Positions 46,083 through 50,227 of a stretch of 64,000 nt of DNA are shown in pieces. Origin of the DNA: an uncultured delta proteobacterium. Its GTDB lineage: Bacteria; Desulfobacterota; Binatia; Binatales; Binataceae. How positions within the stretch are numbered: position 1 is the stretch's first letter; every line of letters starts with the position of its first letter. Location of the stretch: assembly GCA_963724765.1 (NCBI GenBank), contig CAVRVY010000001.1, forward strand, positions 992,001 to 1,056,000, in the 5' to 3' direction. Under the pieces are notes generated by a model. It was not told where the DNA came from, ran no database searches, and saw only the letters and a list, made by a program, of their open reading frames with translations. The position numbers and the translations under genes are program-made.

Positions 46083-48258
46083 ATGTTTGTGAAGCCAAGT
46101 AGTGGGCTATTGGGTTTGGTTATGGTGGTGGGGTCGGCCGCGCTTCTGGCTCCCACGGCGCGGGCGCTCGGTCCGGTCAATGCGGCGGCCGCTCCATCGA
46201 TTCGCGGCGACGCACGATCCATCCTCGGCCAGTTCGGTGTCCTCGCGATCGTTCCGATCAACCCGGAGCAATCCTTCGTCGAGGGCTACGAAGCTTACCG
46301 CGCGCACGATCTGATGAAGACGATCGAGCGGATGACGCTCGCGGCCGACAAGTACCCCGCGCTTGCCGACTACGCGCTGTTCTATCTCGGGTCGGCCCAG
46401 CGCGACAGTGGCGACAATCAGAACGCCGCCGCGACTTTCCGGCGGCTGAGCTACGGCTATCCGCAAAGCGTCCTCGCCGATGAAGCGTCGCTCCAGTACG
46501 CAGAAATCGAATTCAAACTGGGACGGCTCGGCGACGCGCAGACGGCGGCCGCGGCGCTGGCTGCTCGCAATCCTGACCCGGGAATTGACTCGCAGGCGCG
46601 GCTAATCGAGGCGCGCGCCTCGCTCGGCCTTGGCGACGCGCAAGGCGCCTTCAGCCAACTGCAGGCGCTGCGCGAAAAGTATCCGCAGGGCGCTGCCGAC
46701 AGCGATGCGCGCACGCTCGCCTACTCGATTGCCGCGGCCCATCCCGATCTGATCGACACTCACTCGCTCGGCTACCATCGCCGCGAGGCCGCGTTGCTCC
46801 TGCACGAGGGCCACTCCGCCATGGCGCTTAGCCAGGTCGACGACGGCGCTGGCGCTCGAGCCTCCGGCCAGCGTGCATGCCGAGTTGCTGTGGCTTAAAG
46901 CCCGCGCGCTGCGGGCTGATTCAGACCGCGAGATGCTCGCGCTCGACGCCTATCTCACGTATGCGCCGCATGGCGAAATGGCTCCTGAGGCGCTCTATCG
47001 GCTGGGGCATCTGCAATGGCGTACCGGCGATACGAAGGCTGCGCGCGCGACGTTCACCAAACTGGTGCAGGAATTTCCCGCGCGCGAGATCGCGCCGGCC
47101 GCGATGTTCGACATCGGGCGCGCGTACGAGGACGACGCTCAGTGGGACCTCGCGCGCGCCGCGTACCTGCGCCTGGTCCGCAGCTATCCGCATAGCACTG
47201 AGGCCGCCGATGGCCGCTTCCGCGCGCCGTTTGCGCTCTACATGACCGGGCACTTCGACATGGCCGCGCGCGAATTCGCCTCGATGCAGCCGATGGCCGC
47301 GTCGGCCTCCGAGCGCGACGGGCTCTCGTACTGGCATGCGCGCTCGATGGAGCGCTCCGGCCAAAGCATCGCGGCCACCGCGATTTACCAGAGTCTGGCG
47401 CAAAGCACCGCGAGCAACTACTACCCTGAACTGGCGGCGCGCCGGATCGGCGCGCCCACGGCCCAGTTGGCCGCGGCGGACGCGCCTTCACTCGACGCCG
47501 CCGTGCCTTCCGTGGCGCCCGGCACCCTTGCCGCGTTTCATCTGGACCGTGTCACCACGTTGAAGCGGCTCGGCATGACCTATCTTGAACCGCCCGAGTT
47601 GCGCGCGCTCGCCAACGTGGACTCGAGCGACCCGCGCGTGCGCGATTTCGTGCTCGCCGAATTGCAGCGCACGGGCGATTGGTATGCGGCGATCGAGATA
47701 GCAGTGCGGTTGGAGAAGACCGGCAGCCTCGATTCCTCGACCACCGAGCGGCTGCGCTACCCGCGGGCTTACTGGGACATGATCGCGCAGGCCGCCAATG
47801 GCGACGCGCTCGACCCTTACCTGGTGCTGGCGCTGGTGCGCCAGGAGAGCCTGTTCAATCCGCAGGCGCGATCGGTGAGCGACGCGCGCGGCCTGATGCA
47901 GTTGATGCCGGCTACGGCCGACCGGATAGGGCCGTCGGCGGGTGTCGAGCAGGCCTCGCTCAACCTCTATGATCCTTCGCTGAGCGTGCGCGTGGGCACC
48001 GCCTATCTCAAGGACCTGTTCGAGATGTTCGGCGGCGATCCATTCAAGGCGGTCGCGGCCTACAATGCGGGCGAGCATGCGGTCCAGCAATGGAACGCCA
48101 AGTATCCCGGCGACGACGATCAATGGGTCGAGAATATCGGCTTTCGCGAAACCCGCGACTACGTCAAACGGGTGATCGGCGGCTTGCGGGAGTACCGGAT
48201 GCTCTATCCGTCGCACACGGTCTCCAGCGGCGCGACTCGGCCGCAGGGCCCGTCATAG
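46083..48258 (+). pseudogene. TPR-containing soluble lytic transglycosylase (Slt-like), frameshift near 46840
   Basis: Signal peptide and TPRs in 46083-~46840; TPRs continue in the next frame into RQES, GLMQ, AAYNAG and ETRDYV. May be a sequencing error. Confidence 0.85.
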
Positions 48259-48484
48259 GGCCGTCTTCAGCAGAACCGCCATCGGCCGGCAAGCTGCGGG
48301 CGTTCGCGCAAAGGACTTCCTGGGGAGAAAGTGCGCGCTCCGCTCACGAGGCCACTAAGCGACGGCGCTAAGGCCGGTGCCATGACACATGTCAGCGGGG
48401 TTGGGTCTCGCTCAGTCGCCCAGTGGCGATGCGACGAGCGCCTCCGATTGACCGCGATCATTCGTCTGCTTACGCTACGACGCT

Positions 48485-48655
48485 ATGAAACTGCTCAACC
48501 GCCAGTTGTTCGTCCTCGTACTTAGTGTCGGAGCGTGCGTGACCACGACCGGGTGTTTCTCTTGCACTACGGTGCATAACCCACCGCCTCAAGTCACCAT
48601 CCAGCAGTCGCCTCCTGTGGTAGTCGCGCCTAATCCGCCGCCTCCAGCCCAGTGA
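48485..48655 (+). CDS. Putative 56-aa Pro-rich lipoprotein (absent from ORF track)
   Basis: MKLLNRQLFVLVLSVGACVTTTGCFSCTTVHNPPPQVTIQQSPPVVVAPNPPPPAQ*. Confidence 0.55.
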   Translation: MKLLNRQLFVLVLSVGACVTTTGCFSCTTVHNPPPQVTIQQSPPVVVAPNPPPPAQ

Positions 48656-48720
48656 CACTGTTGCGAGGCCCGCAATTTCGCTCATGTCTCGGAACAATGC
48701 AAAAAAATTAAAGACTAATT

Positions 48721-48815
48721 TGGCTGAGGGGGTAGGATTCGAACCTACGAGCGACTTTCGCCGCTAACCGGTCGTTTTTACAACCGGTTGCCTTCGGCCA
48801 CTCGGCCACCCCTCA
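48721..48815 (-). ncRNA. Non-canonical tRNA-like RNA 1: Ser-type body, 12-nt anticodon loop, encoded CCA
   Basis: TGAGGGG/CCCCTCA-G-CCA; D arm GCCGAGTGGCCGAAGGC; ACCGG[TTGTAAAAACGA]CCGGT; V arm AGCGGC-GAAA-GTCGCT; T arm GTAGG-TTCGAAT-CCTAC. Confidence 0.85.
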
Positions 48816-48840
48816 GTGCGCACCTGCCAGCGCAAGATCG

Positions 48841-48912
48841 GGAGAGCGCGCTAGGATTCGAACCTAGGTCTTCGCCGTGATCGCGACGCACTACGCTCTG
48901 TGCTACGCGCTC
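48841..48912 (-). ncRNA. Non-canonical tRNA-like RNA 2: shortened anticodon arm
   Basis: GAGCGCG/CGCGCTC-T-CC; D arm GCAC-AGAGCGTA-GTGC; TCGC[GATCACG]GCGA; variable loop AGAC; T arm CTAGG-TTCGAAT-CCTAG. Confidence 0.75.
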
Positions 48913-49330
48913 TCTATTCGCACAATGCTTGGGACTTGGATCAGATAGATTAAACCTCTATTCCAGGCACAACTTGGCGTCTTCGAACATCCAAGGCCGC
49001 TCCTGACATGGATTAAACCGGAGGCATCGCTAAGAAGTTCCATAAGCGCCTAATCTTCCCTAAAGTTGCCGTGTGGGTTGTACAAAAACTTGTACCCAAA
49101 CACTTCGATTACCCCCCGCCATGCACCCCTGCGATGGTCCGTCCGCAAGCGGAATGCAACCGCTTACCTAAATGAGTTACTGCGAGATTTCGCAATCAAA
49201 TCAGGGAGTTATGCGGCAATTTGGTTCTCGTTTCGTGCATCGTTGGCCAGCGGAATCGCTTCGGAATAGCGATAGAAACTTGTCAAGATAGCGTCCAGGT
49301 AGCTGCGGCCGTAGTGTAAAGGATCGAAGG

Positions 49331-50227
49331 GTGATAGCAGTCGGCGAGCCGCTGCCCGGACCATTCATCGGTATCGACGTCGGCGAGAATTTTCTCGACC
49401 TCGCGATCGTCGATGCTCCGCCACGCACGCTGGTTTTTAAACGCGTCGGGCTCGACGGACTGAAAGAGCCTGTCTGCGACACGCTGGCAGAGAAAATCAA
49501 AGACGCGGCGCCGGGAATCGATGCGCGCGCGATAGCACTGGTCGACTCGCCGCGATGGCCGCGCGATCTCGATTGGTCGCGCGGAACGCACAAGCGCGAT
49601 CCTGCGCCGCGCGGACGCGAGGTCGACGCCGTCCTGCGGCAAATCTATCGCACGTTAGTGGCTGTGCCCGCCGGCGAAACTCGGATGCCGGGGCTCTCGA
49701 TGTTCCCGACGCCGCGATATGACTACTTCGCGCGATGGGCGCGCGATCCACGATGCAAGCCGCATCTGAGCGCGATCGCGGCCGAACTGTTCGGCGGGCT
49801 TTTAGATGATGATCGTGATGCGGGCGGTCCGACGCAGAGCGGTGGCGGAACTTTCACTCGCTTCATGCTGGCCGGGTTCGGAACCTATCGCGCGCTGGAG
49901 CGGCTCGGCGTGCCCGTCTTCGAGTCCTATCCCGACCTGCAGTTGCGCCTTTCGTCTCCATCGACCTCGCTTCCGCCCAAAAAGCAGCACGCGAAAGCGT
50001 TGGCCGTGCGCCGTGATATCGTCGCGTCGCTCGCGGCAGGGCTTGGGCTTCGCGACGCGCCCATGCCGAAAACTGTTGACCAGGCTGACGCCGCGGCGCT
50101 GGCGCTCGCGGCCGCCTCCTCGGCGCTCGGCGATACATTGTGGGTGGTTCGCCATCCATGCGAGGGACGTTTCATGCTCGCGCTCGACGCTCGCCAGGCG
50201 CGCTGCCTCGGCATAGGAGGCGCTTGA
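49331..50227 (+). CDS. DUF429-like predicted nuclease (RNase H-like fold)
   Basis: FIGIDVG, LVDSP, REVD, FESYP and DQADAAALA pattern. Confidence 0.65.
   Translation: MIAVGEPLPGPFIGIDVGENFLDLAIVDAPPRTLVFKRVGLDGLKEPVCDTLAEKIKDAAPGIDARAIALVDSPRWPRDLDWSRGTHKRDPAPRGREVDAVLRQIYRTLVAVPAGETRMPGLSMFPTPRYDYFARWARDPRCKPHLSAIAAELFGGLLDDDRDAGGPTQSGGGTFTRFMLAGFGTYRALERLGVPVFESYPDLQLRLSSPSTSLPPKKQHAKALAVRRDIVASLAAGLGLRDAPMPKTVDQADAAALALAAASSALGDTLWVVRHPCEGRFMLALDARQARCLGIGGA

Follow-up and report, generated by a model that had tools for sequence, protein, structure and literature searches.

Tandem tRNA-like genes with altered anticodon arms on a lineage-specific insertion in a Binataceae genome

The tandem pair and its structure

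A 64,000-nt stretch of the genome of an uncultured delta proteobacterium of the Binataceae (contig CAVRVY010000001.1, positions 992,001 to 1,056,000 of the forward strand), hereafter the window, has been analysed for two transfer RNA (tRNA)-like genes that lie in tandem on its minus strand and are referred to below as t1 (48840..48913) and t2 (48721..48815). The host is a soil or peat bacterium, and the pair was seen in no other genome searched. Both genes are located on a lower-GC insertion of approximately 1.05 kb (48280..49330, with a left edge uncertain by about 25 nt), which is defined by homology breaks, synteny and GC content. Besides t1 and t2, the insertion contains a small lipoprotein gene and orphan non-coding DNA, and it separates a gene for an SLT lytic transglycosylase from a gene for a DUF429-like protein.

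In the window, ARAGORN predicts a normal tRNA-Leu(caa) at 2670-2755 and, as the only other tRNA genes, the two on the minus strand, labelled "tRNA-SeC(tca)" (t1, 48840-48913) and "tRNA-???(ta)" (t2, 48721-48815). Both match the Rfam tRNA model RF00005 above its gathering score of 29 bits. The match of t1 covers 48843-48912 with 51.1 bits (E = 4.9e-8 for the 64-kb window), and that of t2 covers 48724-48815 with 46.5 bits (E = 9.4e-7 for the same window). When the 54 RF00005 matches found genome-wide are ordered by score, t1 is 48th and t2 is 50th. The first-pass annotation of this DNA had described two minus-strand cloverleafs about 25 nt apart in a lower-GC intergenic region, and ARAGORN and RF00005 agree with it. 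The spacer measures 24 nt between the ARAGORN ends, or 27 nt counted from the t1 discriminator, and the GC content over 48450-49349 is 0.50-0.58, compared to 0.61-0.71 in the flanks.

Outside the anticodon arm, t1 and t2 show the canonical cloverleaf elements, namely a 7-bp acceptor stem, a paired D stem and a 5-bp T stem with a UUCRAnY-type T loop. As had been noticed earlier, the T arms (GUAGG-UUCGAAU-CCUAC in t2 and CUAGG-UUCGAAU-CCUAG in t1) differ by one compensatory pair, and the sequence and the structure drawings agree on this. Across these arms, 15 nt are identical in t1 and t2 (repeat analysis, D6). A 5-bp anticodon stem with a 7-nt loop containing U33 and a purine at position 37 is absent in t1 and in t2. 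The reported length changes of +5 and −2 nt hold: t2 measures 95 nt against the 90 nt of its parent gene, and the anticodon arm of t1 has 15 nt instead of the canonical 17 nt. The structure of both arms supports the conclusion, as judged from sequence, that neither t1 nor t2 is able to act as an ordinary decoding tRNA.

t2 is a type-II tRNA-like gene and a paralogue of tRNA-Ser(UGA), according to ARAGORN, Rfam and alignment to C1:178460-178549. The latter gene, which scores 62.1 bits on RF00005, is the best match of t2 in its own genome (84%, 79 identical positions, edit distance 16). The acceptor stem of t2, UGAGGGG/CCCCUCA, includes U1:A72, G2:C71 and A3:U70 and is followed by the discriminator G73 and an encoded CCA. 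The D arm is of the normal type-II form, with G18G19 retained. The variable arm of 16 nt consists of a 6-bp stem and a GAAA loop. It is identical to that of the parent and to four of the nine same-genus copies listed, and it differs between genera. Outside the variable arm, tRNA-Ser(UGA) is almost invariant across the family.

The anticodon arm of t2 (48766..48789, minus strand) features a 10-bp helix capped by a 4-nt AAAA loop, in place of the 5-bp stem and CUUGAAA loop of the parent. The helix comprises eight Watson-Crick G-C or A-U body pairs, one G-U pair and a closing U-A pair. It is present in both the minimum free energy (MFE) structure and the centroid structure; ARAGORN draws the loop as 6 nt. 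Folded alone in ViennaRNA, t2 has an MFE of −49.2 kcal/mol (z = −5.74), and 0 of 200 shuffled sequences were as stable. The 10-bp arm also forms when a 236-nt context is folded. At the DNA level, the arm constitutes a near-perfect inverted repeat (I13), with 9 of 10 positions complementary and 4 nt between the arms.

The five additional nucleotides of t2 comprise one at position 26, three in the anticodon loop and one at the junction of the anticodon and variable arms. In the order of the molecule, the acceptor pair G1:C72 has become U1:A72, the D loop carries three substitutions, an extra A follows position 26, the anticodon loop has changed from CUUGAAA to UGUAAAAACG, the C before the variable arm has been replaced with UU, and one G:C pair of the T stem is now A:U. 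No similarity was found between the flanks of t2 and those of the parent, and therefore either the copy was precise to the tRNA or its flanks have diverged over time.

t1 is a 74-nt tRNA-like gene identified with ARAGORN and RF00005. Its acceptor stem GAGCGCG/CGCGCUC has 7 bp, with an eighth A-U pair possible. The D stem GCAC/GUGC has 4 bp, the D loop AGAGCGUA is devoid of GG and the variable loop has 4 nt. At the 3′ end, the discriminator U is followed by CCC, and no CCA is encoded; CCA is encoded at the end of 43 of the 59 ARAGORN predictions in the genome, and enzymatic addition to t1 is possible. The anticodon arm (48872..48886, minus strand) was delimited using the sequence, the ARAGORN drawing and the Rfam alignment, in which four stem pairs are aligned. 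It is composed of a 4-bp stem UCGC/GCGA and a 7-nt loop GAUCACG that has UCA as its central triplet, with A and C at positions 33 and 37, respectively. The closest tRNA in the same genome has 53 of 74 nt in common with t1, and no parent of t1 is detectable among the genome's own tRNAs. A D loop without GG, the absent CCA and the lack of a close paralogue may be taken as signs of decay or foreignness.

The insertion and its occurrence

The left flank of the insertion is formed by the gene for a TPR- and SLT-domain lytic transglycosylase (46873..48258, plus strand), assigned with Pfam and tblastn, conserved and syntenic in relatives. On the right, the DUF429-like protein (49331..50227, plus strand) scores 21.4 bits with Pfam PF04250, below the cut-off of 23; its nearest atlas protein clusters are DUF429, and it is likewise conserved and syntenic in relatives. 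The spacer between the end of the SLT gene at 48258 and the start of the DUF429-like gene at 49331 is 1,072 nt, and the start codon of the latter abuts the insertion.

The DUF429-like protein was searched in 40 relatives and matched in 16. Twelve same-genus genomes gave a match, and 11 of them have the SLT gene directly upstream, separated by no more than about 90 nt. ARAGORN found no tRNA in any of the 17 relatives' loci. Nucleotide homology to seven same-genus loci ends at 48227-48279 and restarts at 49332-49357. The first-pass annotation had proposed the comparison of syntenic SLT-DUF429 loci and had named absence of the locus from relatives as an observation that would speak against its interpretation; this absence is what the 11 same-genus genomes show, with no tRNA between the two genes.

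Wider searches gave a similar picture. The pair or the whole insertion was used as a BLAST query against 60 relatives, 120 genomes of the family and 400 genomes of the phylum (about 580 in total), collections from which records of the genome under study may be missing. Unpublished genomes are counted here, namely G033 among the 60 relatives and G472, G497, G470, G033, G510 and G485 among the family genomes, and locus L053 of G472 was one of the tRNA-Ser copies compared; none of the conclusions depends on these genomes alone. In these collections, t1 was matched only by short T-arm fragments, and the full-length matches of the aberrant t2 were canonical tRNA-Ser(UGA) genes of 88-91 nt only. Re-scanning of 19 loci from the search of the 60 relatives returned a normal tRNA-Ser(tga) in every case. 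The whole insertion otherwise matched lipoprotein paralogues. Pattern scans, in which the anticodon arms were left free, gave 0 matches in viral contigs and 0 in metagenome contigs. In 185,579 species genomes the tandem pattern occurred at 13 loci, all of them unrelated (12 in Clostridia-type metagenome-assembled genomes and one in a deltaproteobacterial metagenome-assembled genome). Phage and plasmid collections contained generic tRNA-Ser matches only (74-76%). No homologue of t1 or of the aberrant t2 was found in the searched collections, whereas a conserved structured non-coding RNA family would have homologues with covarying pairs in other genomes. As a separate observation, one genome of the family (G479) has three regions resembling tRNA-Ser(UGA) in a stretch of about 51 kb (C13:833083-884095), which match the t2 query with 82-83% identity.

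The accuracy of the sequence was assessed with Logan contigs of coded runs from different studies, which show 0 differences and no indels relative to the window; one of the matching runs may be the sample from which the window was assembled, and none of the runs found was an RNA run. All of t1 is covered by record 3 of X1 (48786-49215), all of t2 by record 9 of X2 (48473-48829) and the t2 anticodon arm by record 14 of X4 (48556-48807), each with 0 differences. Both junctions of the insertion are bridged in contigs of three studies, and neither a deletion form nor a joint skipping the region was found in them. Indel errors at the two arms, which the first-pass annotation had listed as a possible refutation, are thus not observed in these contigs.

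The lipoprotein gene (48485..48655, plus strand) is convergent with t2. The open reading frame (ORF) encodes a predicted proline-rich lipoprotein of 56 aa having a signal peptide with …VGAC, and the reading frame is conserved. The same genome has a paralogue at C4:575173-575298 (86% over 42 aa); with further copies in G016 and G009, this is a small genus-level family. No Pfam family was found for it in a test that was run on the overlapping minus-strand ORF. Next to the paralogue at C4:575173 there is likewise a decayed tRNA copy; this was considered as a possible link between lipoprotein and tRNA copies and set aside as a coincidence, as no tRNA occurs within 1.5 kb of the homologues in G016 and G009.

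Upstream of t1, the insertion continues with 417 nt of orphan sequence at about 50% GC (48914..49330, minus strand), in which neither an ORF that has a paralogue nor an Rfam family or consensus promoter was found. A scan of 48200-49450 for promoters and terminators gave 0 sites and is uninformative, because the same rule finds matches less than 200 nt upstream of only 5 of the 59 tRNA predictions; upstream regions read by eye showed no convincing t1 promoter. Two further candidate features were rejected. A TTCGAAC repeat at 48982-48995 (D1) was considered as a third tRNA remnant, and Rfam gives nothing there at E up to 10. The direct repeats 48283-48303 and 49292-49312 (D2, 76% over 21 nt) are too weak for a target duplication or an attachment (att) site.

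No integrase, transposase, toxin-antitoxin or other mobile-element gene was found in the insertion or its flanks. The SLT and DUF429 flanks are housekeeping-type genes, and these and the HAD neighbour are conserved without the tRNAs and provide no functional link to them. The genome encodes one seryl-tRNA synthetase (SerRS, C4:588552-589745) plus the usual five class-IIa matches, with no second SerRS among them, and no tRNA-dependent transferase adjoins the pair.

Origin and possible role of the pair

The reading that we favour, with moderate confidence, is that t1 and t2 are relics, remodelled tRNA copies without decoding that are situated on a lineage-specific islet. A segment of about 1.05 kb bearing both copies would have entered the SLT-DUF429 spacer in this lineage only. 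t2 derives from a tRNA-Ser(UGA) of the genus, as a copy whose boundaries coincide with the tRNA itself, and its anticodon arm would later have been remodelled to the closed 10-bp hairpin. t1 would represent a tRNA copy that is older or of foreign origin; its anticodon stem is shortened, its loop is non-canonical, the contact between D loop and T loop is weakened and no CCA is encoded. At present, both would be evolutionary relics with no role in translation. Like ordinary tRNA pseudogenes and duplicates, the pair is lineage-specific, absent in relatives and has lost decoding, with decayed copies alongside; t2 differs from an ordinary decaying copy in that every non-anticodon stem is kept and its stability exceeds that of the parent, which is unusual. 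The claim of the first-pass annotation that a tRNA shape without decoding has been selected stands in its second half, given the state of both arms. Its first half, a selected "system", is not supported, as the pair is a singleton with no homologue found in relatives.

If the locus is transcribed, t2 would probably be cut by RNase P and serylated, and it would be unable to pair with a codon. Bacterial tRNA-Ser identity, as described for E. coli and T. thermophilus, resides in the long variable arm, G73 and G2:C71, and the anticodon is not read by SerRS. All three of these features are present in t2; G1:C72 is now U1:A72, and two extra pairs have formed at 26 and 44/45. Serylation of a transcript would be probable because G73, G2:C71, A3:U70 and the long variable arm are kept and SerRS ignores the anticodon.

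Several observations weigh against regarding the pair as mere relics. The four stem substitutions of t2 make up two compensated pairs (U1:A72 and the T-stem A:U), and the three changes in the D loop leave G18G19 intact. The added A, the change of C to UU and the rewritten loop each create base pairs. Of 20,000 mutants of the parent with 11 random substitutions, 81 retained every one of the 21 stem pairs outside the anticodon arm, and with 11 substitutions and 5 insertions, 16 of 3,000 mutants folded as stably as t2. The mean folding energy of the mutants was −35.6 kcal/mol (standard deviation 4.8) compared to −42.6 kcal/mol for the parent, and t2 is 6.6 kcal/mol more stable than the parent. 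According to this simulation, random decay does not typically give a molecule such as t2; the simulation carries an ascertainment bias, in that only copies with intact stems are detectable. The parent tRNA-Ser(UGA) is near-invariant in the family, and therefore t2 has evolved fast yet stayed structured. The same theme of a tetraloop-capped arm is seen in another irregular tRNA copy of this genome, C4:37370, with a 7-bp stem and a 4-nt loop. The insertion is bridged in contigs of three studies and is therefore stably kept. Irregular tRNAs that are charged and not used in translation, described by Mukai et al. 2017 (PMC5389517), make a functional class conceivable.

The earlier argument that random decay would hardly spare nearly every stem is upheld in part, with the simulated frequencies for t2 in its favour and two points against it. 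Several decayed copies exist in the genome, and the finding of two well-preserved ones may partly reflect the detection limits of tRNA finders. The A:U swap in the T stem of t2 could represent one gene conversion from t1, which has the same 15 nt.

Because the pattern of changes in t2 is non-random, a functional non-decoding tRNA mimic comes next in weight, as a tentative alternative that we regard as possible and on the unlikely side. This is a narrowed form of the idea in the first-pass annotation. t2, and perhaps t1, would be transcribed and processed, t2 would be serylated, and the rigid arm would bar decoding, so that the molecule would act as a seryl donor, a sink or decoy for proteins that bind tRNA or toxins that target it, or a regulator. 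The structure-preserving and helix-creating changes, equalled by 81 of 20,000 and 16 of 3,000 random mutants, point in this direction, as do the acceptor and variable-arm features of tRNA-Ser that t2 retains together with the encoded CCA, the intact T loops of both genes, the second tetraloop-capped arm at C4:37370 and the persistence of the islet in populations from three studies. A precedent is provided by the irregular, charged, non-translating tRNAs of soil and peat bacteria (PMC5389517; review PMC7609411). However, the pair is a singleton, absent from the 11 syntenic same-genus loci and found neither in the approximately 580 related genomes nor by the pattern scans. Clearly decayed tRNA copies coexist with it in the genome, t1 has neither the D-loop GG nor CCA, and neither a second SerRS nor an adjoining tRNA-dependent transferase was found. 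The extra pairs of t2 at 26 and 44/45 may alter the orientation of the variable arm, on which SerRS depends. In addition, the T-stem swap may be a single conversion from t1, and the simulation is ascertainment-biased towards copies with intact stems. A bolder version, in which t2 is a natural "anticodon-less" seryl-tRNA mimic and forms, together with t1 and C4:37370, an islet-borne non-decoding set of this soil and peat lineage (for example decoys for tRNA-targeting toxins or phage nucleases, or aminoacyl donors), is considered unlikely. In this version, selection would have preserved the L shape and chargeability of t2 while closing its anticodon arm into the rigid hairpin.

The tRNA-Other of Bacillus cereus is a tRNA-like small RNA that is charged by the LysRS1/LysRS2 complex, is conserved in its species group and is paired with dedicated synthetases. 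Its amino acid identity differs from the tRNA-Ser parentage of t2. tRNA-Other and the pair are alike in being chromosomal, tRNA-shaped and not ordinary decoders, and tRNA-Other can be aminoacylated. It is mentioned in PMC5389517.

Polycistrons of irregular tRNAs and inactive allo-tRNAs, some of them of the Ser type, have been reported in soil and peat Acidobacteria by Mukai et al. 2017 (NAR, PMC5389517). According to that study, some irregular tRNAs are charged in vitro and unused in translation, and some are pseudogenes linked to mobile DNA; they are often located near toxin-antitoxin or transposon genes, an account repeated in a review (PMC7609411). An allo-tRNA, as described there, has a 12-bp acceptor branch split 8/4 or 9/3, a long variable arm and a Sec-like D arm (PMC5389517). 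The irregular tRNAs of that study resemble t1 and t2 as tandem, non-standard tRNA-like genes of soil or peat bacteria. They differ in the 8/4 or 9/3 split, in G-1 or an extra loop, and in their proximity to toxin-antitoxin or transposon genes, whereas t1 and t2 have the 7/5 split, a lesion in the anticodon arm and no adjacent toxin-antitoxin or transposon gene. The 7/5 architecture places the pair outside the allo-tRNA class, and it may be a related phenomenon. A literature search on bacterial pseudo-tRNAs and non-canonical anticodons brought up no description of an arm like those of t1 and t2, which does not prove that none exists; the irregular tRNAs in figures S5 and S6 of PMC5389517 may include similar sequences.

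The relic and mimic readings would matter in different ways. As relics, the genes would offer a clean and datable case of how a duplicated tRNA gene is remodelled, given a known and almost invariant parent. If functional, t2 would be a rare natural example of a chargeable tRNA scaffold barred from ribosomal decoding, with a bearing on non-ribosomal uses of aminoacyl-tRNA, on defence and counter-defence involving toxins that cleave tRNA, and on how orthogonal tRNA scaffolds are designed.

Mutational remodelling without selection would involve processes by which one strand of an inverted repeat is copied to the other or by which recombination takes place within the anticodon arm (replication template switching, gene conversion between the neighbouring T arms, or imprecise site-specific recombination at an att site in the anticodon loop). 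It appears quite improbable as the explanation of the base-paired look of the aberrant arms; it is a mechanism for the relic reading and not a separate function. tRNA anticodon loops serve as integrase targets; no integrase or mobile-element gene lies in or next to the insertion. The near-perfect DNA inverted repeat of the t2 arm (9/10, 4 nt apart), the 15-nt identity of t1 and t2 across the T arm and the perfectly palindromic arm of C4:37370 are what such processes might leave behind, and template switching has been reported to make and maintain RNA hairpins, with compensatory changes arising in one event (bioRxiv 10.1101/2021.04.15.439925). However, inspection of the alignment shows no single template switch that converts the parent arm to the t2 arm, and several steps would be needed. 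One pair of the arm is G-U, which is not expected from DNA copying, and the U1:A72 swap is left unexplained.

It is very improbable that the genes are working decoders, with t1 as an opal suppressor or selenocysteine tRNA and t2 as a frameshift or quadruplet reader. The UCA triplet does stand in the centre of the 7-nt loop of t1, and the t2 loop can be drawn as 8 nt if a G-C pair is open. However, t1 has A33, C37, the 7/5 architecture, only 4 bp in each of the anticodon and D stems and a short variable loop, and the tRNA-Sec model RF01852 does not match it even at E up to 10. The loop of t2 closes to 4 nt in the MFE and centroid structures. The central UCA is the sole likeness of t1 to tRNA-Sec, whose 8/5 architecture, 6-bp D stem and long variable arm it lacks; all three are present in the true selC gene of this genome (C3:1323593-1323688, 96 nt). 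Since the ARAGORN label "tRNA-SeC" of t1 is wrong and the true selC lies elsewhere, such labels call for caution in annotation. Finally, a sequencing or assembly artefact, with indels in normal tRNA genes, can practically be dismissed, as t1, t2 and both junctions read the same, with 0 differences and no indels, in contigs from three studies, for which a shared mis-assembled source is unlikely.

Other irregular tRNA copies in the genome

The genome contains at least six further irregular or decayed tRNA copies. The Arg(UCG)-like copy at C4:37370-37444 (minus strand; L073:1071-1145) scores 60 bits with Rfam, has all stems paired and encodes no CCA. Its anticodon loop is the 6-nt palindrome UUCGAA, and the arm folds into 7 bp with a 4-nt loop and is perfectly palindromic. 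The surrounding ORFs, about 3.8 kb between genes resembling holA and MazG, are unannotated, and the flanks of the copy are unmatched in 40 relatives.

Three copies are visibly degenerate. The one at C4:574959-575035 (minus strand; L076:1460-1536) is a duplicate of a tRNA-Arg(ACG) gene located 7.6 kb away and includes about 30 nt of the parental upstream flank. The D-loop GG has changed to AA and ACG to TCG, the stems contain mispairs and CCA is lost; the copy lies 138 nt from the lipoprotein paralogue. A tRNA-Lys(UUU) copy at C1:473332-473405 (52.8 bits) has mispairs in the T stem and anticodon stem and no CCA. The Lys(UUU)-like copy at C3:686737-686818 (L100:1438-1519, 35.4 bits) has an expanded D arm.

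A 107-nt element at C4:1574959-1575065 (plus strand; L099:1460-1566) scores 52.2 bits with the tRNA model and was missed by ARAGORN; a 49-nt arm replaces its anticodon arm. In its homologue in G004 (L102, 88% identity), the long arm and about 80 nt upstream are conserved, and the D loop, T loop and acceptor carry indels. This element was considered as a conserved tRNA shape and rejected on account of these indels, and it gives no support for the pair. The comparison points to a conserved element of another kind, with a partial likeness to tRNA.

Taken together, the sequences indicate that tRNA gene copies at various stages of change are frequent in this genome. Two of them have long variable arms. 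The 91-nt gene at C4:64275-64365 (minus strand; L074:1078-1166) matches the Rfam tRNA-Sec model with 61.9 bits (cut-off 47); its anticodon is GCA (Cys), and among the classes of Mukai 2017 it is similar to the selC*-type or allo-tRNA ones. The other, an 88-nt gene at C1:265448-265535 (plus strand; L075:1049-1136), scores 41.6 bits and has a UGG (Pro) triplet and an encoded ACCA end; the normal tRNA-Pro(UGG) is located at C3:835233.

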